64,000 nucleotides of DNA from contig JBGPKK010000003.1 in the NCBI GenBank assembly GCA_041485905.1, positions 2,042 to 66,041 of the forward strand, read 5' to 3'. Numbering within the stretch: position 1 is the stretch's first letter; each line of letters starts with the position of its first letter. Origin of the DNA: Vicinamibacteria bacterium (lineage in GTDB: Bacteria > Acidobacteriota > Vicinamibacteria > Vicinamibacterales > CAVVIG01). The position numbers and the translations under genes are program-made. Shown in pieces: positions 10,522 to 54,960 of the stretch. The notes under the pieces are model-generated. The model was given only the letters and a program-made list of their open reading frames with translations. It had not been told where the DNA came from and searched no databases.

Positions 10522-10571
10522 CCCAGGTGAACCGAACCGCACCAGGGAGGACCAGCAAGGGTCGCGGGAGC

Positions 10572-11321: not shown

Positions 11322-11460
11322 ACGGGACGCCAGTTGATAAACTGGCATTGAGGCATGGTCCGTGCCCTGCAATCACCATGCAATGTCCATGGGCGCACGA
11401 AAACCGCGCTAAACTACCGTGTCGGGACGACCGGCAAATCCCTCCTCAAGGAACGCCAAT

Positions 11461-13095: not shown

Positions 13096-13156
13096 TGTCC
13101 GCTCCGGGCGGAAACGGCACCCCGCCGGCTTCAGTGCAGAGGATAGGGAGGCCATC

Positions 13157-25627: not shown

Positions 25628-25658
25628 CGACCGGGCGCGTAGTATACACGCGCGCCGA

Positions 25659-27458: not shown

Positions 27459-27652
27459 AGGACACGGGCGTGTGCGGCCCTCATGTTTCGATAAGGCGTC
27501 CCTCGTGGCACGCCCGCACACATCAACTCGGCGCCGACCTCGGGGGACAGCTTGGAAAGCGCGCAGAGTATACTGCACCGTGGCTCCGGGCGGTCGGTCA
27601 CCCGTGCTCAGCCGGGGCCCAAGAAATCTGCGACGCTCGGCGGCTCTGGCTT

Positions 27653-33817: not shown

Positions 33818-34143
33818 ACCGGCTCTCGGAGGCTGTGATCGTATCGGGGTTCGACTGACGAATGTGACACGAGCTGAACTCCGATGAAGCTTACCACCGA
33901 TCAAGTGCCTGAGCGACCGATCGAGCCTCAGCTGCGTTGTGAAACGAAAGACGCGACCCCTTCGTCGCCTCTCGAACCGCCCGATTGCGTCGGACGTCGT
34001 CGGCGCAGAAGGGCGACACGCAGAAAGGCGGGCGTTTGACGCACCAGTGGGAAGGGGATAGGCTTCCTTGCTGTTCTCGGAGCGGTCCTCCGGACCGGCC
34101 ACCAGAACAAGGACAGCCATCCGCGACCAGAACAAAGGAACGT

Positions 34144-35394
34144 GTGGGACATTTCCTCAATTTAGACGGCTTGGCTTTGAACAAGAGCCAAGGGAAGTGG
34201 AAGCGGACTGCCGAAGCAGTGGTTCGCGAGGTGCTTCGGCCGAACGCGGACCGCGTCGATCGGTCGGCGGTTTTTCCGCAGGAGAATATCAAAGCGCTGT
34301 CAGATGCGGGGTTGCTCGGGCTGCTCGTCGACAAAGAATACGGGGGCCCCGGTGAGAGTATTCTCACGGCAGTGGTGGTGACCGAGGCGATCTCGAAGGG
34401 GTGCGCCGCCACCGGCATGGCCTACCACATGCACCAGACGACCATCCCCGTCATGTGCGCCATGGCCACGCCGGAGCAGGCCGAGGCGTACGTTGCCCCG
34501 ATTGCCCGGGATCAATTGTTCGGGGCCTTTGCGATGAGCGAGCCGGGCTCGGGCAACAAGATCTGGCACATGGACAGCTTTGCCGAGCCGAACGGCGACG
34601 GGTTCGTCATCGACTCATTCAAGTCTTTCTGCACCAGTTCTGGCTACGTCGACTACTACCTGGTGCCTGTGCGGTCCGCTCGCGGGGTCGCCGCCCATGA
34701 CATGAGCCTGTTCTTCATCAGGGGCGACGACCCGAACATCAAGTGCATCGGCGACTGGGACGGCATGGGACTGCGGGGCAATTCCAGCCGGCCTGTCCAT
34801 TTCGATCACTGTCAGGTGCCCGGCGCGCAGCGGCTGGGAAACCCGAACGAAGGCTTCGGGTACATGATGGCCTTTGCGCTGCCCATCTATCTCTGCGGGA
34901 TGGCCGCGGTCTACATCGGGGTCGCTCAGGCCGCCTACGAAGCGGCGGTGGAACACGTCAAGACACGCATTCACTCCGATACCAATCGCTCGCTGGCCCA
35001 CCTGGAGACGGTGCAGCGGCTCGTGGCCGAAATGCGCATCGCCATCGATACGGTCCGCTTCACGACCATTCGCATCGCCCAGCACGCCGACAACGCGATG
35101 GTGCTCTTCAGTGAGTTCAAGCAGGCTGGTCTGCTGGACGAGGTCATCCGTGACAATCCAGACGATCCGTTCTTTATCGAGGTGGCCTCGTTGAAGCCGG
35201 CGGCATGCGAGATGGCCATCATGGTGACCAACAAGGCGCTCCAGGTCTGCGGGGGCGCGGGTTATAAACGCGGCCACGTGGTCGAGCGCTGCTATCGCGA
35301 CGGGCGCGCCGGATCGGTCATGGGCCCGTCGGACGATACGGTCAAGCTCGTCATCGGGACGCAAATCCTCGGCCTCGACCAACCCTGGACGTAA
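34144..35394 (+). CDS. acyl-CoA (or acyl-ACP) dehydrogenase family protein
   Basis: FPQENIKALSDAGLLGLLV, FAMSEPGSGN, C-terminal QVCGGAGYKRGHVVERCYRDGRAG. GTG start at 34144 follows AAGGAA. Confidence 0.85.
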   Translation: MGHFLNLDGLALNKSQGKWKRTAEAVVREVLRPNADRVDRSAVFPQENIKALSDAGLLGLLVDKEYGGPGESILTAVVVTEAISKGCAATGMAYHMHQTTIPVMCAMATPEQAEAYVAPIARDQLFGAFAMSEPGSGNKIWHMDSFAEPNGDGFVIDSFKSFCTSSGYVDYYLVPVRSARGVAAHDMSLFFIRGDDPNIKCIGDWDGMGLRGNSSRPVHFDHCQVPGAQRLGNPNEGFGYMMAFALPIYLCGMAAVYIGVAQAAYEAAVEHVKTRIHSDTNRSLAHLETVQRLVAEMRIAIDTVRFTTIRIAQHADNAMVLFSEFKQAGLLDEVIRDNPDDPFFIEVASLKPAACEMAIMVTNKALQVCGGAGYKRGHVVERCYRDGRAGSVMGPSDDTVKLVIGTQILGLDQPWT

Positions 35395-35446
35395 GCGCTG
35401 GCGTTCATCGGTGTGTCTTTCACGTGCTGAGCAGGCAGGATCCAAG

Positions 35447-35824
35447 ATGTGGACTTCAGAAAAGCGAACATACGAGAACGTTCTGCAGGATTTCAAAGAC
35501 CGCTTCAACGGCAATCCCCGGGCCCAGAAGCTGGTCAAGGACTGGAATCGAATCGTTCTCCTGGATTCCACGGATACGGGCTCGAAATTCGGCCTGGTCG
35601 TGAAAGATCAGGTGATGGTCGAAGTTCGGCCGATGTGCGATTTCGACGAAGAGGCCGACGGAGTGGTTCATCTGCAGGCGGAAGAGGATGTCTTGCAGGA
35701 GATCTTCGCCGGAAGGTACAACCCGGCCACTGCGCTCGTGGACGGGGCGCTCGCCGTCTATTCCCCGGACCGGGACAAGGTCAAGCTCGAGGCATTGGCC
35801 ATGGTCATCTGGCGCCTTGGATAA
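35447..35824 (+). CDS. stand-alone SCP2 sterol/lipid-carrier domain protein
   Basis: 125 aa. FGLVVKDQVMVEVRP...VVHLQAEEDVLQEIFAGRYNPATALVDGALAVYS matches the SCP2 pattern. Confidence 0.72.
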   Translation: MWTSEKRTYENVLQDFKDRFNGNPRAQKLVKDWNRIVLLDSTDTGSKFGLVVKDQVMVEVRPMCDFDEEADGVVHLQAEEDVLQEIFAGRYNPATALVDGALAVYSPDRDKVKLEALAMVIWRLG

Positions 35825-35878: not shown

Positions 35879-37228
35879 ATGAAAGGCGCGAAAGAACTCT
35901 TCTTCTACGTCACGGTCAGTTGTGGCATGACGCTGGCGACCAGCGTGTTCACGATGATCTCCGGCTTATTCGAGATCACGACCGGACCCGGGGCGCTGGT
36001 GGGAATCGCTCTCGCGGGTTTCTTCTGCCTGATCATCGCGCTGTCGATCGGTGAGCTGGCCAGCATGTACCCGTCGGCGCCGGCGGTCAGAACGTATCTG
36101 AAGACGGCATTTGGCGATCGGGCCTCGCTGCTTCTTGTGTACCTGTACTTGATCTCCGTCGTGCTCGTCGCGGGCCTCGAGAGCTTCATTTTCTCGCAAG
36201 TCTTCCACGCCGCCTTTCCCGCTGCCACCGCCCTACCCACGATCGTCATCCTGTTGTGCGCCATTACGGCCGTCAATCTGGTGGGTCTGGAGTTGCCGCG
36301 CAGCGTGCAGATGATCGCAACCGTCGGTGTGGTGTTGTTCATCGCGATCTCGGGCTCTCTGGGGTTTCTGTCTCCACGAATCCCTCTCACCGGTCAGATC
36401 GGGCCGGTCACTCCTGAACTGCTGCGATCGCTGCCAGCGGCGGCTGGCCTGGCCGTGTTCCTCTATATGGGCTTCGAGTGGGTGACTCCGGTCGGCCTGC
36501 GGCCGAGCTCTTACCATTGGAAAGTGCCTATATCGATGGCCATTTCGGTGGGTGTGCTCATCATCACGTTCGGGGTCTTCGTCCTGGGCGCCGCCTCCCA
36601 GTTGCCTCGGCACATCATCAGTTCCACTCCGGTGCCGCAGGTGGGCTACTTGACGGCGATCTATGGCCCGACTGGCGTGTATCTCGCGCTGGCTCTGGCC
36701 CTGGCGGCGACCGTGTCGACGTTCAACGCGGGCATCATGGGTGGGTCTCGCCTCATCTACCTGCTGGCGCGGGAAGGCCACTTTCCGGAGTGGTGCGCCT
36801 CGCTGTCACTTCGCACCGGGGCTCCCGTAGCGGCGGTGCTCTTGCTGAGCAGCCTGGCCTTGGTTTCCGCAATCGCGGTGATGGCGTGGGGAGCCGCACT
36901 GCTGGTCGCCGTCATCGGCGCCGCGATCATCTGTGTGCTGTACGCGGCCTTCCTGCTCTCGGCGCTGGTGTTGCGCAAACGTCGACCGGATGCGCCGCGG
37001 CCGTATCGCAACCGCCTCTGGAGCCCTCTGCAGTGGTTCGGGGTCATCGCGCTGCCTCTCCTGGGCCTGCAGACCCTGATTTCAGAGCCCAGCCTTGGCA
37101 CTCGTCCGGTGTACGGCGGCGCGCTCGCGCTGATCCTGGCGGCGTTGTTGACCCGGGTGTACGGCGTCCCACGACCTGCAGGACCGGGCGACAAGGCGCC
37201 GGTGCCGGCCACGCAGAGCTTCTCGTGA
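35879..37228 (+). CDS. APC-superfamily amino acid/polyamine permease
   Basis: 449 aa, 12 hydrophobic helices, GELASMYPSAPAVRTY and FLYMGFEWV motifs. Confidence 0.85.
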   Translation: MKGAKELFFYVTVSCGMTLATSVFTMISGLFEITTGPGALVGIALAGFFCLIIALSIGELASMYPSAPAVRTYLKTAFGDRASLLLVYLYLISVVLVAGLESFIFSQVFHAAFPAATALPTIVILLCAITAVNLVGLELPRSVQMIATVGVVLFIAISGSLGFLSPRIPLTGQIGPVTPELLRSLPAAAGLAVFLYMGFEWVTPVGLRPSSYHWKVPISMAISVGVLIITFGVFVLGAASQLPRHIISSTPVPQVGYLTAIYGPTGVYLALALALAATVSTFNAGIMGGSRLIYLLAREGHFPEWCASLSLRTGAPVAAVLLLSSLALVSAIAVMAWGAALLVAVIGAAIICVLYAAFLLSALVLRKRRPDAPRPYRNRLWSPLQWFGVIALPLLGLQTLISEPSLGTRPVYGGALALILAALLTRVYGVPRPAGPGDKAPVPATQSFS

Positions 37229-37332: not shown

Positions 37333-39063
37333 GTGAGGACTCAGTTCGATACCGTGGTCGAGGCCCTTGCGGCGGCGAAGGCCGATTCACGTAACGGCTT
37401 CACGTTTCAGAATCTGCACGGCGATGAAACGAAGTACACGTTCGCCGAGCTAGAAGCGGAAACGGCCCGCCGCGCCGCAGCCATGCAGCAGCTTGGGCTG
37501 CACAAGGGTGACCGGCTCGGGTTGGTCATCGCCGAACCCGAGGATTTCGTGCTCGCGTTCCTTGCGGCGCTGCGGACGGGCGTGGTGCCGGTGCCGCTGT
37601 ATCCCCCGCACTATCTCGGCGGCCTGGAAAACTACTGCAAGCAGACCGGCGCGATCCTCCGGTCCTCGGGAGCCCGGGTCTTGGTCGCGTCTCCGCAAGT
37701 GATCGGTATTGTGCGGGCGCTTCCGGCGTGGGTCGAGGGGCTGAAGACTGTTGTGTCAACGAGGGAGTTGACGGGAAGCTCGCGCGAGACGCACTACCCC
37801 GACATCTTACCGGACGACCTCGCGTTTCTGCAGTACACGTCAGGTTCCACAATGGCCCCGCGCGGTGTGATGGTGACGCATCGCTCGCTGGTCAGCAATA
37901 TCCGGGCGTTCATGGGCACCGGCCTGAAGATGGATCCTGACCGCGATAGCGGTGTCTGCTGGCTGCCGCTCTATCACGACATGGGCCTGGTCGGATTCGT
38001 GCTCGGTCCGCTGTTCTGGGGCGTTTCGGTGGTGTTCATACCGACGTTGCGGTTCATCAAGAACGCGTCGGCCTGGCTGGACGCGGTGGATCTCCACCGC
38101 GCAACGGTGACGTTCGCGCCGAATTTCGCCTTTTCACTGGCGGCGCGTCGTGTGCGGGCGGCCGAGCTCGGTCGCTGGGATCTTTCCTGCCTGAAGGCGA
38201 TAGGATGTGGCGCCGAACCCATCCATCCGCCCACTGTGCGGGAGTTTGTGAGGGTCTTCAGCGAGTCCTGCCGGCTTAACCCGGCTGCGGTGGTGCCGGC
38301 GTACGGGTTGGCTGAGTGCACCTTGGCCGTCGCCATGAAGACGCTCGGGCAGCCATTGCGCACGCGGCTCGTCGATGCTGAGGCGTTCCAACAGGACGGA
38401 ATCGCCCGCCCGGTGGGTGATGGTGACGCGGTCAGTGCCATCGAACACGTCTCGTGCGGCCGGATCCTATCCGGAGCGGAAGTCGCGATCCTCGACGTCA
38501 ATGGAGAACGAGCGCCCGACGATGTTGAGGGCGAGGTGTGCGTCCGCGGTCCGTCCGTTGCGGCCGGCTACTTCGGCGAGCCCGAAGCCTGGGCCCGAGT
38601 GTGGCGGGATGGGTGGCTCTCGACGGGCGACCTGGGCTATCTGTCAACGGGGGAGCTGTTTATCACCGGGCGCTCCAAGGATCTCATCATCCTCAATGGC
38701 CGGAATCACCATCCGCAAACGATCGAGTGGACGGTGGCGGAAGTCGATGGCGTTCGCGAGGGTAGCGTCGTGGCCTTCTCGCGGCCTGGAGCATCCGGCG
38801 AAGAGTTGGTCGTCATCGTTGAAGCCCGGGCCAAGGATTTCAACCGGCTCGTCGCCGATGTCGAAGACGCCGTGCACAACGCCGTGTTCACCAAGCCCGC
38901 CGATGTCGTCTGGTTGCGTCCCGGCAGCCTGCCCAAGACGTCTTCGGGCAAGCTCAAGCGGCATGAGATCAAGCAGCAGTACTTGCGAACGCGTTTCGAA
39001 GCGGAGCGCCTGCGCCCGGAGCAGCACTCAGCAGACCAGACCACGGTCGACGCGTCGACATAA
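37333..39063 (+). CDS. fatty acyl-AMP ligase (FAAL-type adenylating enzyme)
   Basis: GDRLGLVIAEPEDFVLAFLAALRTGVVPVPLYPP, LAFLQYTSGSTMAPRGVMVTHRSL, GYLSTGELFITGRSKDLII, SSGKLKR. No carrier domain is attached. Confidence 0.88.
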   Translation: MRTQFDTVVEALAAAKADSRNGFTFQNLHGDETKYTFAELEAETARRAAAMQQLGLHKGDRLGLVIAEPEDFVLAFLAALRTGVVPVPLYPPHYLGGLENYCKQTGAILRSSGARVLVASPQVIGIVRALPAWVEGLKTVVSTRELTGSSRETHYPDILPDDLAFLQYTSGSTMAPRGVMVTHRSLVSNIRAFMGTGLKMDPDRDSGVCWLPLYHDMGLVGFVLGPLFWGVSVVFIPTLRFIKNASAWLDAVDLHRATVTFAPNFAFSLAARRVRAAELGRWDLSCLKAIGCGAEPIHPPTVREFVRVFSESCRLNPAAVVPAYGLAECTLAVAMKTLGQPLRTRLVDAEAFQQDGIARPVGDGDAVSAIEHVSCGRILSGAEVAILDVNGERAPDDVEGEVCVRGPSVAAGYFGEPEAWARVWRDGWLSTGDLGYLSTGELFITGRSKDLIILNGRNHHPQTIEWTVAEVDGVREGSVVAFSRPGASGEELVVIVEARAKDFNRLVADVEDAVHNAVFTKPADVVWLRPGSLPKTSSGKLKRHEIKQQYLRTRFEAERLRPEQHSADQTTVDAST

Positions 39064-39100: not shown

Positions 39101-41233
39101 TCACGGGCTCGACACCGCGCCGACCCAGACCGGCGTCGCGCTGAGCGTCGCTGTGCCCGTGGGGGCGTCCACGTTCGCCCCGTCGGTCAGATCATTCAGG
39201 CTCGCCCCGGGATGGGCGTTTGCGACCGTTTGTGCGGTTCCCGGCCGTCCATGACCGAATCCGTGCGGCAGGCTGACGACACCGGGCATGATGGCGTCGC
39301 TCAGTTCAAGGGGTGCCGTCACCGCGCCGACCGCCGATCGGATTTCCACGCGCTGCCCGTTCGGTAACCCTCGTGCTGCGGCATCGGCAGGGTGCATCAG
39401 GAGCGTACAGCGATCAGGCCCGGTCATGAGCCGCGGCGCGTTGTGCATCCACGAATTGTTGTTCCGGATCTGCCGTCGCCCGATGAGCGCGAGCGATCCG
39501 GGCGCAGGCCTGCGCGAAAGTCGAGCCGCCAGTCGCTCCAGGTCGGCCAGCAGGATCTCCGGCGCAAGATGAATCTGCTTGTCGCGCGTATACAATCGTC
39601 CCGGCAAGCAGGGAGTGAGCGGTCCCAGGTCGATCGTGTGCGCCTCCTTCCGAAGGCGATTGAGTGAGAGCCGGTGGGGTCCGATTCGCAGAAGCCCGTC
39701 GAGCAGACGCCGCGGACCGAGACGCTGCAATCCCTTCAGGTACAGTCCCGCTATCGAACCCTTCATGCCGCCTCGTCGGGCCTCCAGCCGTTGGGCCAGT
39801 CCGAAGTAGATGTCCCAATCTGTTTTGCTCGTGGGCGGAGGAGTCAACACCGCAGGCGCGTACTTCGCGGTGTTCCGCACCCCGAACGCGCGGAAGGCGA
39901 TGTCGTAATGATCTCGCTCGAGCGCGAATACGGGCGGCAGGATCAACGCGGCATGGCGCGTGGTCTCGTTCAGATAGAAGTCGATGGAGACCATGTACTC
40001 CAGTGACGCGAGGGCGCGGTCCAGTCTCCCGGCATCGGGGGTCGACAGCACGGGATTGCCCGCCGACGTGACGAGCCCGCGGATGCCCCCATGACCCGGC
40101 GTGTCGATTTCCTCGGCGAGCGCGGCCACCGGCAGTTCCCCACCGAACTCCGGCAGCCCGCGGACGCGGCTGTGCCACGTCTTGTGCGAGCCTTTTTGAC
40201 CCAGGAGCGCGCCGATCCGGACGATATCCACGGCGGGTAAGGAAAACATGGCGCCGCCGGAGCGGTCCAGGTTGCCGGTCAGGATGTTGAGTGCCAGAGC
40301 CAGCCAACAGGTGAGCGCGCCGAATTCCTGAGTGCAGGCCCCGATCCGGGGATAACACACGGCCGAGGGCGCAGCGGCAAATTCCCGCGTGAGCTTCCGA
40401 ATCTCATCCGCGGCGATGCCGATGCTGCCGGCGACGCGTTCCGGCGTATAGGGCGCCATCGCGCGCGTGACCTCGTCGATGCCGCGAGTGAAGGATTCCA
40501 GACGCCCGGGCGTGACAAGCCCTTCCGCTGCCAGGGTCTGAAGCATGGCGGCCAGCAGCAGCGCGTCTGTGCCCGGAACAATGGGGTAGTGCGTATCCGC
40601 CAATTCTGCCGTTCGGGTCCGCCGGGGATCGATGACCACGAGACGGCCCCCACGGGCCCGGAGTTCGCGGAACCGACGGGGAATGCCGGGCGCCGCCATC
40701 AAGCTCCCGTTGGACTCCGCGGGATTGGCCCCGATGACCAGCAAAAAATCTGTGCGGTCGAGATCGGGAACGGGCAGCAGCAATTGATGGCCGAACAGGT
40801 GATAGGAAGCAAAGAGATGCGGCAGGTGATCCATCGAGGCTGTGGAGAAAAGGGCCCTCGTGCCCAAGCTCGCCTTGAACCCGAGCTCAGCAAGCTGCGC
40901 GGTGTAGGAGTGGAGATTGGGATTGCCGGTGTAAAAAGCGACGCTGTCTTTGCCGTGCTTCGTCTGGATTTCATGCAGGCGCCCGGCCGCTTCGGCGAGC
41001 GCTGCTTCCCAGCTGACGGTCACCCATCGGCCGTTGTGTCGCTTCAAGGGCTCGCGAATGCGCTCCGGATCCTGGTACACCTCAGTCAGGGCCATCGCCT
41101 TCGCGCACAGGAACCCGCGGCTCAGCGAGTCGTCAGGATCGCCCCGGATCTGTGATATTGCGCCGCGCTCGACCTCGAGCGTGAGGCCACACATCGCTTC
41201 GCAGAAAGGACAGGTGGTGACGTGGATGCCCAT
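39101..41233 (-). CDS. molybdopterin (bis-MGD) oxidoreductase family protein with N-terminal 4Fe-4S motif
   Basis: Start at MGIHVTTCPFCEAMCGL...GFLCAKA (Cys-cluster motif), then MopB domains and a C-terminal molybdopterin dinucleotide-binding beta-barrel (RCTLLMHPADAAARGLPNGQRVEI). The upstream 143 codons of the ORF overlap the preceding gene and are not counted. Confidence 0.85.
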   Translation of the reverse strand: MGIHVTTCPFCEAMCGLTLEVERGAISQIRGDPDDSLSRGFLCAKAMALTEVYQDPERIREPLKRHNGRWVTVSWEAALAEAAGRLHEIQTKHGKDSVAFYTGNPNLHSYTAQLAELGFKASLGTRALFSTASMDHLPHLFASYHLFGHQLLLPVPDLDRTDFLLVIGANPAESNGSLMAAPGIPRRFRELRARGGRLVVIDPRRTRTAELADTHYPIVPGTDALLLAAMLQTLAAEGLVTPGRLESFTRGIDEVTRAMAPYTPERVAGSIGIAADEIRKLTREFAAAPSAVCYPRIGACTQEFGALTCWLALALNILTGNLDRSGGAMFSLPAVDIVRIGALLGQKGSHKTWHSRVRGLPEFGGELPVAALAEEIDTPGHGGIRGLVTSAGNPVLSTPDAGRLDRALASLEYMVSIDFYLNETTRHAALILPPVFALERDHYDIAFRAFGVRNTAKYAPAVLTPPPTSKTDWDIYFGLAQRLEARRGGMKGSIAGLYLKGLQRLGPRRLLDGLLRIGPHRLSLNRLRKEAHTIDLGPLTPCLPGRLYTRDKQIHLAPEILLADLERLAARLSRRPAPGSLALIGRRQIRNNNSWMHNAPRLMTGPDRCTLLMHPADAAARGLPNGQRVEIRSAVGAVTAPLELSDAIMPGVVSLPHGFGHGRPGTAQTVANAHPGASLNDLTDGANVDAPTGTATLSATPVWVGAVSSP

Positions 41234-41256
41234 ACAAGCCGAGGACCGATGGACGC

Positions 41257-44163
41257 TCACCCGACCACGGGATCGCCCGGCGGCGATGGCCACAGGCATT
41301 TTTCTTCGATGGAAAAGCCATGGGCCGCCGCGAGCTCCCGAATGCGGCGTACTCGGAACGGCGAGAGTTTCCCGTACGAACTCGGGCACTCCGAACCCGC
41401 GAAACCCAGCAGGATGGTTTCCGCGAGGCAGCCGTACAGCTCCGAACTGGTCATGCGCATGGCAGGAACGTTGAGCGTCTGTCCCAGAGGCGCCCACACC
41501 CGGCCGCCACGAATAACGACCGCATCCGGCCGTTCGACCGCGACGCGCGGGTGAACATCCTGTGGGACCGCCACGTCGCAGACGACGAGCGGACCGCGGC
41601 CGAGATGTTCCGGAAAAACGATCGGGCGGGGTGAGCTCGTGCACGACGCAATCAGGGTGCACTCGCGCAGCACGTCGAGCGAGGTCGCGATGCGCAACGG
41701 GGCCTTGTCCCCGAGCTCTGCTGACAAACCCTCATACAGGGCTACGCCGAGAGCGCCCGGTTCACGCAGATCGTCGATCGCCAGGCGCTTGACCGTCTTG
41801 GTGTCGGCGATACTTCCGGCGATTCCTGCAAGCCGGCCGCGCCTCATGCGTCTGAACGCTCGCGCGTAGATGGCATGCGCCACCGGCAGAAGAAACCGTT
41901 CGGCCCTGGCTTGGCCAACCAGAACGATGTGGCCGGCCTCATCGGCCGCGATTTCAGCGAACACGGCGCCGACATTTCCTCCGGCGCCGATGACCGCCAT
42001 CCTGCCGGCTTGCAGGTCGATCCCGAGGCGGTTGGCGGCCAACCGACAGCCTTCGATGGCGGCTGCCACGGTCAGACTGTTGCCGCTCGTCACCGTCAGG
42101 TCGAGCTCGACGACTTCACGGCAGTTGTCGGTGACGATCGACGTGTGTCCGCCCAGCCCCACGACGGTACACCCATGGTCGCGAGCCAGCTGGACGCCGT
42201 GTTTGACGAGATCGAGCGCCCAGTCGTCTCCGGCGCGCATGCTCAGCACGGCCTGCTGGGCCGTAAACGGGATACCGACGAACGTGACGTGCACGTGCGC
42301 GTTTCGCAATGATCGCATCTCCGCGTGGTCGAGAACGAACGGCTGAAGCGATCCTCGCGTGCGATCCAGAAAGCGCGCGCAGTCCGAATCGGTGAAGGCG
42401 GACAACCCCGATTCCCAGACTCGGAGATCGCACGGTTCCGAGAAATGGACAAGGAAGCCGACACGAGCGGCGTCGGTGGGTACCGGGCTCGGCCGCGGCT
42501 TTGCGGGTGGTGTCGGGAGATCGGCCTCCGACTCTCGCGGGGCCGGGCGATCGCTCAAATAGGCGACCAGCTGGCCGACTCTATCCCGCTGAAGCAGCGA
42601 GCAGAGGCGTTCCAATGCGACGCCGAGGCGTTCAATCGCCTCGTCGCTCACGAATGCGGAGGGTTCCACGCGCAGGACGGTGCTCTTCGACAACGTGGGA
42701 GCGACACGAATGCGATGCTCCCGCAAGAGATAGCCGCAAGCCACGTAACCGAGCAGGTTCTGCTCCGACAGCACCTGCAGCAAAGGTGAGGAAGAACCGG
42801 TCTGCGGCATGAGCTCCACGCCGATCATCAATCCACGGCCGCGCACCTCACGGACTTGATTGGGGAAACGCTCCCGAACTCGCTCGAGTCGTTCGAGCAG
42901 TTGCTCTCCCTTCTCTCGACACCGGGCGATCAGGCGGCCGTCCTGCCTGTCCAGGATGTCCAGCGTGCGTAGCGCAATCATGCTCGAGAAGTCGTCGTCG
43001 GCGAATGTGGACGTGTGCAGGTACGCGAATTCGGGCACATGTCGCTCGCGATCGACCAAGAGAGCCGAGACTTTCGCAAGGCCGCCGCCCAGCGCTTTTG
43101 AGAACAGGTAGTAATCGCCGGCAATTCCGAGGCGCTTCGAGGCGAGGAAATCACCGGCCCGCCCCAGGCCGCTCTGAATCTCGTCGATCACGAGCGGACA
43201 GCCGGCGCTGTCCGCTGCCTGCCGGAGCGTGTGGGCGAACTCGGGGCTGAGTTCGTGGATTCCGCCTTCGCCCTGAATGGGCTCGACGAAGATGGCGGCG
43301 ACATTGGTGAAGATCTGTTCCTGCAGCTCCGGCGTACCGTCCTTCGAGACGGCCAGCGTGTAATACGGCTCGCGCCTGCGCTGCAGTTCCGCGCGTACCG
43401 CCTGCGCGTCTCCAAACGGTACGAACACGGTCGCGTCGCCCAGGCGACGCCATGGGCTCCGGAATTCGAGTCGATGCGTCAGCTTCAGGGCGCCGGTCGA
43501 TTTCCCATGGAAGCTGCCAGTCACCGCGAAGAAGGTGGGTGGGCGGCCGAGGAGTCGCTCGATGTTTCGACTGAGCGCTGCGAGGAGCTCGTCGAGCGAG
43601 TCGATGCGCTCGGCCAGACGCTGCGACGCGTCCTCAAAGAGATCGGAACCAGTACCGACCCGACCCGAGCGAATCCGCAAGCGAAGGCGCTTGCCAGTGT
43701 CGACGAAACGCGCCAGCAGGGAATCATTGCGCCTGGACGCTTCCAGCTCAGCGTGTTTGATCGCGGCCTCGACCGCTTCGGCTCCGGTGCTGCACAACGT
43801 CACGATGTAGGAGCGGCCGGTGGTGCGCTCCACGAACGAGGAGAGTCGCTCGGCGAGCAGCCCGGCGTGGCCGCGAATGCTGGCCTGTGCATGAAAGGGC
43901 CGCTGCTCGGCGAGCACCTGCCCCGCCAATTCGACCAGCTCGGGATGATTGTGGCCGAGAAGGGAGGCGCCAAAACCACCGACGAAATCGACGACCTCCA
44001 CCTCACCGCCCGGTCCCTCGTAATAGAGACGATCGCCGACGGCACGATGGTAGTGCACATCGAGACCGAAGGCTTCCAGCAGGTGCGCGAGGTGCGGCTT
44101 CAGCGATCCGGCGTACGCACGCCTGAATGGATCGTCATGGCGCTGAACGTCCTGCTCGCTCAT
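41257..44163 (-). CDS. bifunctional fusion: class III PLP aminotransferase (N-terminal) + cyanobacterial-type acyl-ACP reductase (AAR)-like domain (C-terminal)
   Basis: N-terminal half: GGFGASLLGHNHP, VEPIQGEGG, LVIDEIQSGLGRAGDF, LFSKALGGG (PLP-Lys). After a Pro-rich linker (aa about 540-566), the C-terminal half reads VGFLVHFSE, GLGGHTSIV, VTSGNSLTVAAAIEGCRLAANRLGIDLQAGRMAVIGAGGNVGAV and ELYGCLAETILLGF. These parallel FGLIGHLTS, LGGFTSII, TTGNTHTA...VAVVGATGDIGSAV and FACFAEAMLLEF (catalytic Cys) of Synechococcus AAR as I recall it. Confidence 0.85.
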   Translation of the reverse strand: MSEQDVQRHDDPFRRAYAGSLKPHLAHLLEAFGLDVHYHRAVGDRLYYEGPGGEVEVVDFVGGFGASLLGHNHPELVELAGQVLAEQRPFHAQASIRGHAGLLAERLSSFVERTTGRSYIVTLCSTGAEAVEAAIKHAELEASRRNDSLLARFVDTGKRLRLRIRSGRVGTGSDLFEDASQRLAERIDSLDELLAALSRNIERLLGRPPTFFAVTGSFHGKSTGALKLTHRLEFRSPWRRLGDATVFVPFGDAQAVRAELQRRREPYYTLAVSKDGTPELQEQIFTNVAAIFVEPIQGEGGIHELSPEFAHTLRQAADSAGCPLVIDEIQSGLGRAGDFLASKRLGIAGDYYLFSKALGGGLAKVSALLVDRERHVPEFAYLHTSTFADDDFSSMIALRTLDILDRQDGRLIARCREKGEQLLERLERVRERFPNQVREVRGRGLMIGVELMPQTGSSSPLLQVLSEQNLLGYVACGYLLREHRIRVAPTLSKSTVLRVEPSAFVSDEAIERLGVALERLCSLLQRDRVGQLVAYLSDRPAPRESEADLPTPPAKPRPSPVPTDAARVGFLVHFSEPCDLRVWESGLSAFTDSDCARFLDRTRGSLQPFVLDHAEMRSLRNAHVHVTFVGIPFTAQQAVLSMRAGDDWALDLVKHGVQLARDHGCTVVGLGGHTSIVTDNCREVVELDLTVTSGNSLTVAAAIEGCRLAANRLGIDLQAGRMAVIGAGGNVGAVFAEIAADEAGHIVLVGQARAERFLLPVAHAIYARAFRRMRRGRLAGIAGSIADTKTVKRLAIDDLREPGALGVALYEGLSAELGDKAPLRIATSLDVLRECTLIASCTSSPRPIVFPEHLGRGPLVVCDVAVPQDVHPRVAVERPDAVVIRGGRVWAPLGQTLNVPAMRMTSSELYGCLAETILLGFAGSECPSSYGKLSPFRVRRIRELAAAHGFSIEEKCLWPSPPGDPVVG

Positions 44164-44453
44164 CAGTCTCGCGGGGCCCTCTGAGGCGCGTCCTTCTCAT
44201 CACGGGTCTGTCGCCGAAGCCGCTCGACGTACGCGGCCAATTCTCCAACCGTACGCACGCCATCCAGCTCCTCGAGGTTGAATCGGACGGCGAACTGCTC
44301 CTCGATTGTCAGCATCAGGTCCATGATGCGAACCGAATCGATGCCGTAGCCGCGCAGCCGTGCTTGGGGGACGACGAGCTCGGGCAAAACGGCGCAAGAC
44401 TCCGCTATCAGGTGTCGAAGCCGCTCGATCGTTTCAATGCCGTTCTCGCTCAT
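44163..44453 (-). CDS. acyl carrier protein
   Basis: 96 aa from MSENGIETIER. Phosphopantetheine site motif YGIDSVRIMDLM. ATGA overlap with the upstream SDR and TGATG overlap with the downstream fusion gene. Confidence 0.8.
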   Translation of the reverse strand: MSENGIETIERLRHLIAESCAVLPELVVPQARLRGYGIDSVRIMDLMLTIEEQFAVRFNLEELDGVRTVGELAAYVERLRRQTRDEKDAPQRAPRD

Positions 44454-45331
44454 CGGTTCGTACTCGAAGCTCGATCCGATCGCTGGGTATCCTGCGGGGA
44501 GCCGTCCGACGCGGTCGTCGCGCCGTAGAACGACAGGAGAAGGCGCTCGCAGATTGACCATGGTAGCGTGCGTTTGAGCAACGCCGAAACCCGCTGGCTC
44601 GGATGACCCACGGTGTAGCGAAGGCGAGTCCGCCGGGCCCGCACAATCCTGGCGACGAGGGTGGCAACCTCCGTGGGTGGAACGCCTTTGGATTCCTCCT
44701 TCTGGACCACGGCAAACGCACGGCTGAACGTGTTGCTGTACGGCGAGCCGTCGCGTGACGCCAGCGCAAACACGCGGTTGCTGGTGATCGCCGTCCGAAC
44801 GTCACCCGGCTCGATCAAGACGACTCGGATTCCGAACGGCCGCGTCTCGAGGCGCAGGCTCTCGCTGAGCCCTTCGAGCGCAAACTTGCTTGCGCAATAC
44901 AGCCCCTGAAAAGGCAGCCCGAAGAGGCCCGCAAGCGAGCTGATATTGACGATGAGACCCGAGCGCTGCCGGCGCATCGACGGCAGGACCGCCCGGCACA
45001 CCCGCAGGACGCCGAACAGATTCGCTTCGAACTGATGCCGAGCCTCTTCGACTGAGGTGTCTTCGACGGAGCCACCGAGGCCGTAGCCCGCGCTGTTGAT
45101 CACACAATCGATGCGCCCATGCTGTCGCAACAGACCTGCCACCCCGCGACCGACTGAGTTGTCGTCGGTCACGTCCATCACGAGAGGTTCGAAAGAGTGT
45201 GGGCGGAAACTCGCCTGTCGGCTGGTCCCGTACACGCGGAATCCCAAAACGGCAAGTTGTTCGGCGCACGCCTGCCCTATCCCGGATGAAGCGCCCGTGA
45301 CCAGCGCGATGGAGGGTTCAGCCGCCATCAT
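44450..45331 (-). CDS. short-chain dehydrogenase/reductase (classical SDR)
   Basis: ALVTGASSGIGQA (TGxxxGxG), NSAG, SSLAG...YCASKFALEG (YxxxK). Confidence 0.88.
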   Translation of the reverse strand: MMAAEPSIALVTGASSGIGQACAEQLAVLGFRVYGTSRQASFRPHSFEPLVMDVTDDNSVGRGVAGLLRQHGRIDCVINSAGYGLGGSVEDTSVEEARHQFEANLFGVLRVCRAVLPSMRRQRSGLIVNISSLAGLFGLPFQGLYCASKFALEGLSESLRLETRPFGIRVVLIEPGDVRTAITSNRVFALASRDGSPYSNTFSRAFAVVQKEESKGVPPTEVATLVARIVRARRTRLRYTVGHPSQRVSALLKRTLPWSICERLLLSFYGATTASDGSPQDTQRSDRASSTNR

Positions 45332-46592
45332 GCACCAGATCGGAGCCCATCTCGCGAAGGACCTCGATTGCGCGGTCCGCGATGAAATGGATGTCCTGTT
45401 CAGTGAGATCGGCGTATACCGAAAACCGCGCAAGGGTGATGCCCTTGGGGATGGCTGGAAACACGAACACGGAGGTGAGTATCCGATGCTCCCTCATGGC
45501 TTCGTAGAAGCGGCACGCCTGCTCATCCCGAAAGAAGATGGAGATGATCTGGCTCGCGCTGCCGGCAGTTCCGATGCCCTGCTGATGCAAACGAGACCTG
45601 AGCAGTTCAGCCATCGCGAGGCAATGCCGCGCTCGCTCCGGCTCGCGGATGACGATCTCCAGCGCCTTCATGTGCCCCGCCGCGAGCACGGCGGAAGTGG
45701 CTGAGCTGAAGAGGACCGGTCGCATACAGGTGCAGAGACTGCGAATCATCTCTTTGCTGCTTGCGACGAACCCTCCGTGTCCCCCCAAGGCCTTGCTCAG
45801 GCTGACGGTTCGAAAATGCACTCGGTCGGCCAGGCCAAGCTCGACGGCAAGTCCTCCTCCCTTCTCGCCGAACATCCCAAAGGAATGTGCCTCGTCGAGG
45901 ATCAGCGTGCAGTCGTATTGCTCGCAGATTTCCACGTAGCGGAGGAGGTCGGGGAGCACGCCGTCGGTGCTGTACAGCGCGTCGATGCACACCAGGCCTG
46001 GTCCATGGATACCGACGCGTTTTTCGAGATGGTCCGGGTCGTTGTGCTTGACGACCACCCGGCGACCTCGCGAGAGGCGAATCCCGTCACTCATGGACGC
46101 GTGGGCGTCCACGTCGATGTAGATCGGCAGGTCCGGCGGAGCGACAGCTTCGATCAGGCCGACATTGGCGGTCCAGCCGGCCGTCGTCAGCACGACGTCG
46201 CCGGCCTGCGTCGACTCACGAAGAAGCGCAACGAAACGCTGGTGCTCCTCGGAGGCGCCGCCAAAGACCGACGAAGAAAACGACTCGATGCGGGGGCGGC
46301 TGTTCGCCTCGCGACGCGCGCGCACGACGTCGGGGTGATTGGCCAGGCGAAGGTAGTCGTTCTGATGCAGCGACAGGAACGCCGTAATGTCAGAGGGCTG
46401 GTCAAAAGGAAACGGCCGGAGACTGTCGATGAACTGCCGGTGTTCCTCGAGGTGGCCCGAAAGCCACGCCGGATACCGCGGGGACCCGGTCTGAGCCCCC
46501 GGGACCTCATCCGGCTGACAGGTGACGTTCAACGGGCCTTCGGAGGGCGGTGACGAGGGCGGTCGCGAGCTCATGGCCTCGGATCTGGACAA
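45318..46592 (-). CDS. alpha-oxoamine synthase family PLP enzyme (BioF/Spt/CqsA-like acyl-thioester : amino acid C-acyltransferase)
   Basis: HQNDYLRLANHP, TTAGWTANVG, DAHASM, ILDEAHSFG, TVSLSKALG (PLP-Lys). HGPGLVCIDALYSTDG resembles the CqsA/LqsA branch as I remember it, but this is not decisive. Confidence 0.88.
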   Translation of the reverse strand: MSRSEAMSSRPPSSPPSEGPLNVTCQPDEVPGAQTGSPRYPAWLSGHLEEHRQFIDSLRPFPFDQPSDITAFLSLHQNDYLRLANHPDVVRARREANSRPRIESFSSSVFGGASEEHQRFVALLRESTQAGDVVLTTAGWTANVGLIEAVAPPDLPIYIDVDAHASMSDGIRLSRGRRVVVKHNDPDHLEKRVGIHGPGLVCIDALYSTDGVLPDLLRYVEICEQYDCTLILDEAHSFGMFGEKGGGLAVELGLADRVHFRTVSLSKALGGHGGFVASSKEMIRSLCTCMRPVLFSSATSAVLAAGHMKALEIVIREPERARHCLAMAELLRSRLHQQGIGTAGSASQIISIFFRDEQACRFYEAMREHRILTSVFVFPAIPKGITLARFSVYADLTEQDIHFIADRAIEVLREMGSDLVHDGG

Positions 46593-46649: not shown

Positions 46650-46913
46650 TCAGCGCACCGGGCTGCGGTTCGATGTGGTCTGAATGAGGGTGATCACGTG
46701 GCCGACCGTTCTTGCGGTGGCCAGCGCATCTTCTGCGAACGTGCGGCCGAGCCTGTCTTCGATATTTCCGAGCATTTCCATGATGCGGATGGAGTCGACC
46801 CCGAGGTCTTTGATTTCCGTGTCGGGATTGAGCCGCGCGAAGCGAGCGGCCTTGTCCGGAGCCACTTCACAGAGCGCATCCCGAATCAGATTCAGGGCGT
46901 CGTCGTCGTCCAT
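46650..46913 (-). CDS. acyl carrier protein
   Basis: 87 aa. DLGVDSIRIMEMLGNIE with the DS phosphopantetheinylation motif. Confidence 0.85.
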   Translation of the reverse strand: MDDDDALNLIRDALCEVAPDKAARFARLNPDTEIKDLGVDSIRIMEMLGNIEDRLGRTFAEDALATARTVGHVITLIQTTSNRSPVR

Positions 46914-46932: not shown

Positions 46933-49074
46933 TCAGGCAGCGGCGGCGATGCGTTGTGCTGCGTACCGCGCCAGCGCCATGACGGTCAGGGCAATGTTCA
47001 CCGTGATCGGAGACGGAATGACGCTGGCGTCGCAGATCCACAGGTTCTGGACGCCAAACACCTTCATATTGTGATCGACGACGCCGTCGTGCGGCTTCAG
47101 GGCCATCGCGTTTCCGCCCTGCATGTGCGCCGACATCACGCTGATGAAGTCGCTCTGGTCGATGCCGGCAAAGTAGTCGTCGATATCCTCCACGCGCCTC
47201 ACGACCCCGGCATTGAACCTGCTGATGAAGACTTCCTCGGCACCCATCTTGAACATCGCGTGTGCGGTGATCTTCATGCCTTTTGCGAGGCGTCGCCAGT
47301 CTTCATCAATCAGTTTGAAGTCAATCACGAAGCCGCTGTCACCAAGGACACCGCGCCTGATCTCTCCATAAGCCAGCGACGCGAAGACCGGTGTGGCGGT
47401 GATCATGTTGGAGATCCGGCGCAGCCTGCGTTGGAACTCCGGTCCCCAGGCCGGCAGACCGAGGGCGACGAGCCCGGGAGGCGCAAACGCGGTCTCGATG
47501 ATCATCCGCTCCTCGGGCACTTCCACGGCATAGGCGACCTGCTGGGCAAGGAAGGCATCCTGCCGTTCCGGGAACACCCCGATCACCGGCGAACCCACAT
47601 TGACACTGAACCGCCTGCCGACCGTGCGGACACCGGGCACGGCGCCCAGAAATCCGCTGCGCCAGAGCAACTTGGTGGACGCATACGCTCCCGCCGCGAG
47701 AATAAAGCGGTCGGCCTCGATCCGGACCGAACCGCTGCCCTCACCGACATGAATCGCCCGGACCTCGAGGTCCGAGTTCGCGGGTCCCCCAGGCGCGAAC
47801 TCGATCTTGGTCACCCTCGCGTCAGGAACCAGCAGACCGCCATTCCGCACAAATTCGGGGATAAATGTGACCAGCACCGACTGTTTCGCATCGTACTGGC
47901 AGCCCAGGTTGCAACGGCCGCATCCGATGCAATTCAGGGAGTTGGTTGACACTGTGATCGGCTCGAGCACCCGAGCGTACGCGGTGGCGGGGCCCACTCC
48001 CCCCGCGACCAGCTTCGCAAAGCCGTCCCGTACCGTGCGTGCCCCCTTCGAGATGACCCGTTCCTCCATGGGAGTCACGTGCAGGAGCTCGGTGAGCACG
48101 TCGAACTGCCTGTTGAAATCGGCGTAGTCGAGTCTGATGCCAAGATTCTCCCAGCGGCGTTTCAGATCGTCCCACCAGAAACCCGCCGGCCTCAACGCGA
48201 CCGCGTTGTTGACGACGGTGGAGCCGCCCACGCATCGGCCCTGCTGAAACATGAACTGCTGGTCCTTCGACAACGTGATGCCCGCATTCATGTACAGCTG
48301 CGAGAGGGATTCCAACGCCGAGGTCTTGAACTCGTCGTTCGTCACCAGCGGGCCGACTTCGAGCAGGATCACTCGAGCCTTGGGGTTCTCTTCCTGGATC
48401 GTCCGCGCCGCCACCGCGCCTCCGGCTCCTGAGCCGATGACGCAGTAGGTAAGCGACCCGGAGGGCCTGACGGCAACCTCTTGAGGCGACTTCCGGCGCT
48501 CGTGCAGCAGCTTCGACGATTCGGTGCGAGGCGGGTTGCTTAATTCCGGTCCGGAGGGCGGATTCCACGCGCGCTGCACGACAGGCACATATTCCATCGC
48601 GCGCCACAGCCGATCGTCGTCGAGGTAAGCGCTCACCAGCGTGAACTTGAACACGTCAAGAGTGGCGATGGTCTTGACCGTATCGTCTTCTTGTTCGGGA
48701 GCATCTCGGATGAGCATCTGATACATCTGCTCGATCCATGCCGCACGTTTCTCCCGACTCGACGCGAGAAAATGTCCGTGCCCGAGGAAGCTCTTGAATC
48801 CGTACCAGACTTTCACCGCGGCGTGCGCCACACTCGACTTGGGCCACCTCGGAGGCTCATAAAGGGGGAGCAGGGCCAGGGTGCCGATAAACTGCAGGAA
48901 GACCGGGGTGTTCACGCCAGCCAGAAAGCCATCGAGCTTGTTGACGATGGCGCTGCCATCGACTTTAAAGGGGCCGTCTCCATAGCCGAGTATCGATTCG
49001 GCGAAAGCGGCGACGAACGGCTTGTTCGCTTTCCAATAGGCCCATGCCAACAGCCTCGTCAGTTTCTTCAGCAC
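46933..49074 (-). CDS. GMC-family FAD oxidoreductase with about 210-aa N-terminal extension (long-chain alcohol oxidase-like size)
   Basis: FAD motif YCVIGSGAGGAVAARTI about 215 aa into the protein. GGSTVVNNAV. C-terminal MGGNAM...VFGVQNLWICDASVIPS. 713 aa against about 530-560 for ordinary bacterial GMC enzymes. Confidence 0.85.
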   Translation of the reverse strand: MLKKLTRLLAWAYWKANKPFVAAFAESILGYGDGPFKVDGSAIVNKLDGFLAGVNTPVFLQFIGTLALLPLYEPPRWPKSSVAHAAVKVWYGFKSFLGHGHFLASSREKRAAWIEQMYQMLIRDAPEQEDDTVKTIATLDVFKFTLVSAYLDDDRLWRAMEYVPVVQRAWNPPSGPELSNPPRTESSKLLHERRKSPQEVAVRPSGSLTYCVIGSGAGGAVAARTIQEENPKARVILLEVGPLVTNDEFKTSALESLSQLYMNAGITLSKDQQFMFQQGRCVGGSTVVNNAVALRPAGFWWDDLKRRWENLGIRLDYADFNRQFDVLTELLHVTPMEERVISKGARTVRDGFAKLVAGGVGPATAYARVLEPITVSTNSLNCIGCGRCNLGCQYDAKQSVLVTFIPEFVRNGGLLVPDARVTKIEFAPGGPANSDLEVRAIHVGEGSGSVRIEADRFILAAGAYASTKLLWRSGFLGAVPGVRTVGRRFSVNVGSPVIGVFPERQDAFLAQQVAYAVEVPEERMIIETAFAPPGLVALGLPAWGPEFQRRLRRISNMITATPVFASLAYGEIRRGVLGDSGFVIDFKLIDEDWRRLAKGMKITAHAMFKMGAEEVFISRFNAGVVRRVEDIDDYFAGIDQSDFISVMSAHMQGGNAMALKPHDGVVDHNMKVFGVQNLWICDASVIPSPITVNIALTVMALARYAAQRIAAAA

Positions 49075-54811: not shown

Positions 54812-54960
54812 GCGCGGTTCCCCTCTGGGGTGCTGATTGGAGCGAGCCTCAAAAACCAAGTTTAGGCTAGGCCAAAAGCAGGGACCTGTCCAGCGCGCGG
54901 CCGTGGGCCGCGGCTCGGGTTGACCGGCGGTCGGCCGACGCGCCAAGATCAGGGCCTCCT

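Follow-up and report, generated by a model that had tools for sequence, protein, structure and literature searches.

A TamH-like transaminase–acyl-ACP reductase fusion gene and its conserved orphan lipid cluster in a Vicinamibacteria bacterium

In a 64,000-nucleotide stretch of DNA from a Vicinamibacteria bacterium (contig JBGPKK010000003.1; the whole stretch is hereinafter the window), we studied a minus-strand gene whose product joins, in a single polypeptide, a class III transaminase (TA) and a domain resembling the cyanobacterial acyl-ACP (acyl carrier protein) reductases (AARs). Judged by its sequence, this TA-AAR fusion is a divergent member of a known and biochemically characterized enzyme type. 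Sequence matches, a predicted structure and the precedent of TamH from Pseudoalteromonas tunicata (PtTamH) make it likely that it is a TamH-type bifunctional enzyme, which would convert a carrier-bound acyl thioester to a primary amine. The architecture itself is not new: a TA-AAR fusion was reconstituted in 2022 (Richardson et al., ACS Catal 2022; PMC9594044) and PigE, in which the order is reversed, was described in 2021 (Couturier et al., 2021; PMC8341465). The new part of the finding is the cluster around the gene, a conserved orphan lipid cluster that the fusion marks and that joins an amine module to a CqsA-like/KDSR-like module. Moreover, the TA-AAR di-domain is far more widely spread than the tambjamine and prodiginine literature suggests.

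Domain architecture of the fusion protein

The gene, its domains and its predicted functional residues are as follows, with the evidence for each in brackets:

41257..44163, minus strand: TA-AAR fusion gene, predicted TamH-type omega-transaminase/AAR-family thioester reductase (list of open reading frames, BLASTP with PtTamH)
42559..44163, minus strand: class III (omega) transaminase domain, N-terminal, aa 1-535 (Pfam, PDB sequence match)
42466..42558, minus strand: Pro-rich interdomain linker, aa ~536-566 (sequence; lies between the two domain matches)
41260..42465, minus strand: AAR-fold thioester reductase domain, C-terminal, aa ~567-968 (phmmer against PDB, NCBIfam, AlphaFold2, Foldseek)
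43096..43098, minus strand: Lys356, predicted Schiff-base lysine for pyridoxal phosphate (PLP), in FSKALGGG (alignment)
42079..42090, minus strand: TSGN motif, aa 692-695, at the junction of two subdomains (aligned to TTGN of AAR and TSGN of PigE)
41968..41988, minus strand: GAGGNVG, a GxxGxxG dinucleotide-binding motif, aa 726-732 (aligned to GATGDIG of AAR)
41428..41430, minus strand: Cys912, predicted acyl-enzyme nucleophile (alignments, invariance)

The listing of open reading frames (ORFs) in the window contains the fusion as one ORF of 968 aa with an ATG start. The motifs of the transaminase (VEPIQGEGG at aa 293, DEIQSGLGRAG at aa 327 and SKALGGG at aa 355) are followed by the Pro-rich stretch of the linker (RPAPRESEADLPTPPAKPRPSPVPTD, aa ~539-565) and then by those of the reductase (VGFLVHFSE at aa 568, GLGGHTSIV at aa 669, TSGNSLT at aa 692, MAVIGAGGNVGAV at aa 722 and ELYGCLAETILLGF at aa 908). 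Thus, the initial annotation, made from the sequence alone, was right in describing a single 968-aa ORF with a class III transaminase, a Pro-rich linker and an AAR-like half, and all eight motifs lie where it had placed them.

The ORF is real and not an assembly artifact, since at least 119 homologs of 893-1062 aa were found, nearly all with a query coverage of at least 95%, and the same in-frame order recurs at other loci. In a scan of one genome per species, which gave 80 loci and to which four fetched earlier were added (84 in all, L003 and L005 being the same contig), the transaminase and the reductase stand in one frame and in the TamH order in 83; two of the scan patterns came from the transaminase and one from the reductase, so that this figure is biased to fusions and is not a fusion frequency among AAR-like domains. 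The notion that two genes were joined by a sequencing or assembly error found no support and deserves practically no credence: besides these 83 loci, full-length homologs are present in hundreds of clusters, PtTamH and the fusion protein align collinearly on either side of the linker and through it, and a 100%-identical protein of 968 aa is encoded on a second (JGI) contig.

The N-terminal half matches the Pfam family Aminotran_3 over aa 55-491 (E 1.7e-55). Among the sequences of solved structures its best match, as a class III enzyme, is CrmG (5DDS, 7e-99), which aligns over aa 29-530 with a ~70-residue insertion included and is ahead of putrescine aminotransferase and PigE by a wide margin. 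CrmG aminates an aldehyde, which fits the role that we propose for this domain. The predicted PLP lysine, Lys356, is matched in PtTamH by the Lys of LAKSLGGG, the sole Lys in that segment, and the Lys356 column is at least 90% conserved among 41 homologs.

As for the C-terminal half, a phmmer search of aa 568-968 against PDB chains recovered the N-terminal region of PigE (4PPM) as the best match (2.5e-16), followed by cyanobacterial AAR (6JZU/6JZQ, 5.6e-12). With this domain alone, NCBIfam returned the PigE model (1.9e-31), the AAR equivalog TIGR04058 (7e-15) and, much more weakly, hemA (8e-6); at 55 bits against a TIGR04058 cut-off of 449.7, and as a domain of a 968-aa protein, it does not belong to that family at the equivalog level. 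An AlphaFold2 model of aa 562-968, built on 41 homologs (pLDDT 93.6, pTM 0.91), was compared by Foldseek with the PDB: the top seven matches were AAR chains (E 1.5e-18 to 1e-14, target TM 0.71-0.76), after which came the terminal amidation domain (TAD) of carmabin biosynthesis (9E4S/9E4U, E 9e-14), while shikimate dehydrogenase, malic enzyme and other Rossmann enzymes reached only E >= 4e-6 at TM ~0.3 (shikimate dehydrogenase structures specifically, E >= 2.5e-3 at TM ~0.3). Because the PDB sequence search, NCBIfam and the predicted structure agree, we assign this half to the AAR-like domains, by sequence as well as by predicted structure. Pfam by itself gave Shikimate_DH alone, at 24.3 bits, equal to its threshold, over the Rossmann core at aa 823-875; this label was dropped after the sequence and structure searches favored AAR and PigE. 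Hence, the AAR-like reading of the initial annotation held up, and neither the profiles nor the structures gave as best match an unrelated Rossmann family lacking the conserved Cys, such as shikimate dehydrogenase or glutamyl-tRNA reductase.

The predicted catalytic residues follow the same pattern. Cys912 aligns with the catalytic Cys294 of AAR and the conserved Cys of PigE in the PDB sequence search, falls on the first Cys of YACCGET of PtTamH in BLASTP and is invariant in an alignment of 42 family members, in keeping with its earlier placement at the position of the AAR acyl-enzyme cysteine. In the same alignment G726, G729 and N730 of the GxxGxxG motif are invariant, as are T692, G694 and N695 of the TSGN motif; in the structure of the carmabin TAD, the equivalent TTG motif is in contact with the catalytic Cys (bioRxiv 10.1101/2024.10.28.620694). 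The reductase domain has two more cysteines, Cys595 and Cys835, that do not vary in any of the 42 members.

The resemblance to the TAD raises the alternative that the C-terminal domain is of that type and offloads a thioester as an amide, with no reduction taking place. It could draw on the Foldseek match at E 9e-14 and on the invariant Cys and T-x-G motif common to both. However, the AAR structures match better (E 1.5e-18, 21% versus 14% identity), and the domain follows a transaminase rather than a peptidyl carrier protein (PCP), the known TADs being the ends of nonribosomal peptide synthetases (NRPSs) that have no transaminase. Furthermore, a fused aldehyde-type transaminase would be pointless for an amidation, and the TamH homolog yields aldehyde and amine. 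Accordingly, we do not count the domain among the TADs, such as those of CarI and VatR, and regard this alternative as most improbable.

Proposed chemistry and acyl supply

BLASTP aligns PtTamH with the fusion protein at 32% identity over 933 aa (E 4e-141), and the match is collinear from one domain across the linker to the other. For PtTamH we used the sequence in the machine-read supplementary information of PMC9594044, in which a few reading errors are possible. A TamH-clade protein of Chitinimonas viridis (locus L084), which is 50% identical to PtTamH, shows 36% identity to the fusion protein over 940 aa. PtTamH consists of an N-terminal omega-transaminase (M1-K500, PLP lysine K340), a linker of ~50 aa and a C-terminal thioester reductase (K547-S941) that was “confidently classified as an AAR”, with a GxxGxxG motif and a catalytic Cys887, and that superimposes on the Synechococcus elongatus AAR (SeAAR, 6JZY) (PMC9594044). 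Its transaminase domain aminates C7-C14 aldehydes with L-Glu; coupled to TamA, an adenylation-ACP protein, TamH converted a C12 acid to the C12 amine with NADH and not with NADPH, an aldehyde was detected when Glu was left out, and acyl-CoA was not accepted (PMC9594044). No obvious acidic residue follows beta-2 in this NADH-specific enzyme. PigE combines an AAR-like reductase with a transaminase in the order opposite to that of TamH, and there is evidence for thioester reduction plus transamination of the resulting aldehyde; its substrate is a 3-acetyl-octanoyl thioester, and the product cyclizes to a cyclic imine (PMC8341465). The PigE model (NF053554) is also the best NCBIfam match of the whole fusion protein, but with 314 bits against a cut-off of 850 and with the domain order reversed the fusion is no PigE equivalog. 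By comparison, the sequence and gene-neighborhood features that define the TamH type are present, namely a class III PLP transaminase with its Lys, an AAR domain with its Cys, collinearity, and an adenylating enzyme with an ACP; the acyl-ACP- and NADH-dependent route to aldehyde and then amine is known from PtTamH.

These precedents correct the initial annotation, which had credited TamH with a reductase of the short-chain dehydrogenase/reductase (SDR) type and had known of no characterized fusion of this kind. The TamH reductase belongs to the AAR family, and PtTamH (PMC9594044), as well as PigE in reverse order (PMC8341465), is such a fusion; the claim of novelty therefore fails, because it rested on a mistaken view of TamH.

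The genes that could supply the acyl substrate are these:

44163..44456, minus strand: ACPb, translationally coupled to the fusion gene (PP-binding, 2.5e-12)
44334..44336, minus strand: Ser of GIDSV in ACPb, predicted phosphopantetheine attachment site (sequence, within the PP-binding match)
46650..46913, minus strand: ACPa, a second ACP, upstream of the oxoamine synthase gene (PP-binding, 7e-11)
37333..39063, plus strand: fatty acyl-AMP ligase (FAAL), predicted ACP loader (AMP-binding, 2.8e-66)
33985..35394, plus strand: ACAD, a flavoprotein of the acyl-CoA/ACP dehydrogenase family, start uncertain (Pfam Acyl-CoA_dh N/M/C)
10458..11321, plus strand: Sfp-type phosphopantetheinyl transferase (PPTase) (Pfam ACPS, 1.8e-17; AASDHPPT_N)

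The TGA of ACPb overlaps the ATG of the fusion by one base (TGATG; CTGATGAGC), and it probably begins with the Met at 44456, for a length of 97 aa, although the ORF as listed extends to 44561. ACPa has a homolog in Corallococcus that follows the FAAL gene. The FAAL gene lies 2.2 kb downstream of the fusion gene and is convergent with it; its best NCBIfam model is PRK09192 (483 bits, cut-off 600). ACAD copies with 57-81% identity stand beside TA-AAR in 12 loci of Myxococcota, Planctomycetota and Acidobacteriota, and the enzyme may, by analogy with the proposal for TamT, desaturate the ACP-bound chain. The PPTase, 30 kb away, is a possible activator of the ACPs, its link to the cluster being an inferred one. 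Thus, the ACP with its overlapping stop codon, the FAAL and the PPTase that the initial annotation had pointed out were all recovered by domain searches. Just downstream of the PPTase gene, at 11419-14281 on the plus strand, are genes for a B12-binding radical SAM protein with DUF4070 and then a DUF362 protein.

Based on these gene contents and on analogy with PtTamH and AAR, whose chemistry would carry over to a protein with the same fold, motifs and invariant residues, collinear with TamH and in conserved partnership with a FAAL and an ACP, we propose the following sequence of reactions. The FAAL would adenylate a fatty acid and load it on the phosphopantetheine arm of ACPb, as the gene content and the TamA precedent suggest; the ACAD may first desaturate the ACP-bound chain, as proposed for TamT. 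The acyl group would then move to Cys912, in line with the alignment to Cys294 of AAR and the conserved Cys of TamH, and NAD(P)H bound at GAGGNVG would reduce the thioester to an aldehyde. Finally, the transaminase, with PLP on Lys356, would turn the aldehyde into an alkylamine at the expense of an amino-acid donor, which is L-Glu in TamH. The path from acyl-ACP through an aldehyde to an alkylamine on one protein, which the initial annotation had put forward, is well supported by the biochemistry of PtTamH; its accompanying idea that the aldehyde is never released is hypothetical for every member of the family, and in the TamH assay an aldehyde became visible when the amine donor was omitted (PMC9594044).

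Distribution of the di-domain and the cluster around it

A search with the full-length protein retrieved 2320 proteins at E <= 1e-5. The best 120 of these 2320 are about 890-1060 aa long and 43-78% identical, with a query coverage of at least 95% in nearly all; the closest named relatives are from Planctomycetota, Corallococcus and Kofleriaceae (46-52% identity), and Deltaproteobacteria are also among the named matches. When only the reductase domain was used as query, HMMER run without filters matched 1988 representative clusters (clustered at 50% identity) at E <= 1e-3, 333 of them at E <= 1e-30. The top matches are mostly 900-1000 aa long with the domain at the C-terminus, and some proteins of 1400-3865 aa likewise end in it. 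The surveyed loci are spread over Planctomycetota, Myxococcota, Acidobacteriota, Nocardia, Streptomyces, Pseudomonas, Chitinimonas, cyanobacteria and other groups.

In 45 of the 84 loci, a homolog of the FAAL (at least 200 bits) is encoded no more than 10 kb from the fusion gene. An ACP gene stands directly upstream of the fusion in three loci, those of Corallococcus sp. M34 (L001; contig JAHNZT010000011.1), a forest-soil contig (L002) and L004; in L003 it is two genes upstream. Minimal loci comprise an ACP, the TA-AAR and a FAAL and nothing more, which amounts to TamA and TamH divided over three genes. In a Nocardia (L045:8345-14254), the TA-AAR is followed by a PigC-like PPDK_N/PEP-utilizers part in one protein of 1970 aa, and in an Oscillatoriaceae metagenome-assembled genome (MAG; L024:87-5786) the PigC-like part comes first and the TA-AAR second (1900 aa). 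In L004 (131-9735), a PigC-like gene is directly upstream of an ACP-TA/AAR-FAAL array, with a second PigC-like gene further upstream. PigC and TamQ condense an amine or pyrrole with a bipyrrole aldehyde; these fusions fit the di-domain as an amine-supplying module. In a gammaproteobacterial MAG (L027:2213-11215), an NRPS of ~3000 aa ends in the di-domain. The rotihibin cluster of S. scabiei was considered as the context of L063 and discarded, its published gene list having no TA-AAR fusion. Taken broadly, the TA-AAR may be a module of general use for installing amines, and it may offer biocatalysts for turning fatty acids into amines.

The other genes of the operon and its convergent neighbors are:

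46933..49074, minus strand: GMC-family flavin oxidoreductase, first gene of the operon (GMC_oxred_N, GMC_oxred_C)
45318..46574, minus strand: CqsA-like alpha-oxoamine synthase, start at 46574 or 46592 (Aminotran_1_2, 9e-34)
44450..45334, minus strand: SDR, closest to bacterial 3-ketodihydrosphingosine reductase (adh_short, 7e-45)
39101..41233, minus strand: DMSO-reductase-family molybdopterin/Fe4S4 oxidoreductase (Molybdop_Fe4S4, Molybdopterin, Molydop_binding)
35411..35824, plus strand: SCP2-like protein
35879..37228, plus strand: APC-family permease

On the minus strand, the operon runs from the GMC oxidoreductase through ACPa, the oxoamine synthase, the SDR, ACPb and the TA-AAR to the molybdopterin oxidoreductase; the ACAD, SCP2-like protein, permease and FAAL are encoded on the plus strand and converge on it. 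The oxoamine synthase has CqsA as its best PDB match (8e-54, 186 bits, against 125-133 bits for SPT and 134-140 for KBL/BioF), and the NCBIfam model for alpha-hydroxyketone autoinducer synthases gives it 290 bits (cut-off 428). CqsA is the synthase of the quorum-sensing autoinducer CAI-1. The KdsR model of NCBIfam scores the SDR at 286 bits (cut-off 400). From their sequences, this pair suggests that an alpha-aminoketone is formed and then reduced, giving an amino alcohol or a hydroxyketone. The GMC oxidoreductase has a 77%-identical copy at the matching position in the forest-soil contig. The molybdopterin oxidoreductase begins 23 nt downstream of the fusion gene, looks cytoplasmic, holds the same position in the forest-soil contig and is present in Corallococcus; its listed ORF, 39101..41662, overlaps the fusion gene through an upstream in-frame GTG, which is an artifact.

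Overall, the cluster extends over ~23 kb (about 27470-50390) in the order desaturase, NAD-epimerase/SCP2, luciferase-like monooxygenase, alpha/beta hydrolase, P450, ACAD, SCP2-like, APC permease, FAAL, molybdopterin oxidoreductase, TA-AAR, ACP, SDR, oxoamine synthase, ACP, GMC and MetA-type channel. The outer genes thus include, on one side, those for the P450, alpha/beta hydrolase, luciferase-like monooxygenase, NAD-epimerase/SCP2 protein and fatty-acid desaturase, with two ABC1 kinases and an RND efflux system also further out, and, on the other side, that for the MetA-type outer-membrane channel. This gene order is repeated in the forest-soil contig at 70-90% protein identity and is rearranged in Corallococcus sp. 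M34. The trio of ACAD, SCP2 and permease is found with TA-AAR in 12 loci, among them those of Phycisphaeraceae and of nine Acidobacteriota, and an oxoamine synthase with the SDR is found with it in eight; a core of ACAD, SCP2, permease, TA-AAR, FAAL, SDR and oxoamine synthase recurs in Acidobacteriota MAGs, and part of the cluster recurs also in Planctomycetota.

In the called genes of the window, Pfam and NCBIfam detected no aldehyde-deformylating oxygenase (ADO), nor do these genes include any for the MBC bipyrrole, PigC/TamQ (PPDK_N plus PEP-utilizers) or a ketosynthase. Consequently, the cluster is not one for alkanes, and a tambjamine/prodiginine cluster was considered and rejected as well. 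As the initial annotation had reasoned, an AAR-like domain that is fused to a transaminase and has no ADO partner in the window would not serve alkane synthesis. A sphingolipid (SPT/KDSR) cluster was not adopted either, since the oxoamine synthase resembles CqsA more than it does SPT and no ceramide synthase was seen. A literature search for this type of cluster found no description of it among the papers covered. The TamH-like amine module of the ~23-kb cluster comprises the FAAL, an ACP, the ACAD and the TA-AAR. It is conceivable, if somewhat doubtful, that the cluster as a whole is responsible for an amino-lipid, alkaloid or signal that is yet to be described; such a product might carry an alkylamine plus a vicinal amino-alcohol or hydroxyketone head.

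Several points weigh against a plain TamH-like conversion of a fatty acyl chain. The chemistry is carried over by analogy from a characterized enzyme of just 32% identity, and the NCBIfam scores are far under the cut-offs of the PigE and AAR equivalogs, so that substrate and cofactor cannot be transferred from them. There is a single FAAL for two ACPs, either of which it may load, and the structurally related carmabin TAD was proposed for a different chemistry (bioRxiv 10.1101/2024.10.28.620694). Moreover, the thioester on which the enzyme really acts may have a more complex structure than a simple fatty acyl chain, since the operon has the CqsA-like oxoamine synthase, the KDSR-like SDR and a second ACP. 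In that event, the same two reactions would act on a PigE-like functionalized substrate (e.g., a keto-, hydroxy- or amino-acyl-ACP from the oxoamine synthase/SDR/dehydrogenase branch), and the product would be a diamine, an amino alcohol or a cyclizing imine instead of a simple fatty amine. The oxoamine synthase, SDR, ACPb and TA-AAR genes do overlap or abut in one operon and are co-conserved in Corallococcus and the forest-soil contig and, more loosely, in Acidobacteriota; there are two ACPs to one FAAL, PigE itself takes a 3-acetyl-octanoyl thioester whose product cyclizes, and PigE is the best NCBIfam model of the whole protein. Nevertheless, the products of oxoamine synthases are free aminoketones, whose return to an ACP would need an extra carboxylate and a second activation step, and the minimal loci have the ACP, TA-AAR and FAAL alone. 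On balance, we consider a functionalized substrate unlikely and favor the TamH-type conversion of an acyl thioester loaded by the FAAL.

The gene content of the cluster also bears on whether the two domains cooperate at all. They could act on different molecules, with the aldehyde from the AAR domain being used elsewhere and the transaminase aminating a ketone or aldehyde from the GMC, P450 or oxoamine branch: the GMC oxidoreductases and P450s of the cluster could produce carbonyls, and channeling is a hypothesis for all family members. Yet the fusion and its order are kept in 83 of the 84 loci whatever their neighbors, and the domains of TamH act in sequence on one chain; the independent action of the domains is thus a very unlikely explanation, and their successive action on one acyl chain is to be preferred.

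Two tandem genes for ABC1 atypical kinases flank the cluster (23798-27578, minus strand), as they do in Corallococcus (L001, 20455-22883), which hints that these kinases belong to the conserved neighborhood. At 50424-54946 on the minus strand, the window also encodes a 964-aa nSTAND1 NTPase that contains TPR repeats and, after it, a 543-aa TIR/DUF4062 protein; the two resemble an NTPase-TIR signaling or defense pair and are adjoined by a TPR-S/adenylate-cyclase protein (54961-56877).

Comparison with characterized systems

Several known systems share one or both parts of the fusion. The cyanobacterial AAR of S. elongatus (6JZU/6JZQ/6JZY) has the fold of its reductase domain (Foldseek E 1.5e-18, target TM 0.72-0.76), and the catalytic Cys and GxxGxxG motif align at an identity of about 21%; by analogy, its conversion of acyl-ACP to aldehyde is expected for the fusion. 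However, AAR is a stand-alone protein of ~340 aa that passes its aldehyde to ADO for alkanes, whereas its counterpart in the fusion is joined to a transaminase and has no ADO in the window. For the transaminase domain, the closest solved relative is CrmG, the caerulomycin aminotransferase, which also takes an aldehyde to a primary amine but has a bipyridine aldehyde as its substrate and stands alone, with no reductase domain. The TAD of CarI (9E4S; bioRxiv 10.1101/2024.10.28.620694) resembles the reductase domain in its AAR-related two-subdomain fold, in the invariant Cys beside the nicotinamide and in acting on carrier-protein thioesters; it differs in its place at the C-terminus of an NRPS, in the lack of a transaminase and in the proposed release of an amide, and its identity is 14%.

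The same net transformation has also been reached by other means. In the Streptomyces pathway for the tambjamine BE-18591, TabE and TabA take a carrier-bound thioester via the aldehyde to a primary amine (bioRxiv 10.1101/2025.08.11.669332), and pairs of polyketide synthase (PKS) thioester reductases (TRs) and transaminases do so for polyketide alkaloids of actinobacteria (PMC5365063). Unlike the fusion, these are separate proteins with reductases of unrelated folds (aldehyde dehydrogenase (ALDH)/LuxC-like and SDR-type TR, respectively). PigE (4PPM), of the MAP pathway to prodigiosin, comprises the same two domain families as the fusion, with the reductase at the N-terminus.

PtTamH (UniProt A4C5V8) functions in the pathway to tambjamine YP1 in P. 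tunicata, where TamA is a fused ANL-ACP protein; in the Vicinamibacteria cluster the FAAL and the ACP are separate proteins, the window has no MBC bipyrrole or TamQ/PigC genes, and the operon adds the CqsA-like oxoamine synthase, the KDSR-like SDR and the GMC and molybdopterin oxidoreductases. Nonetheless, PtTamH and the fusion have the same domain order, with the PLP Lys, the GxxGxxG motif and the catalytic Cys at matching positions, and both are partnered with an adenylating enzyme and an ACP and have an ACAD-family gene nearby, the analog of TamT.

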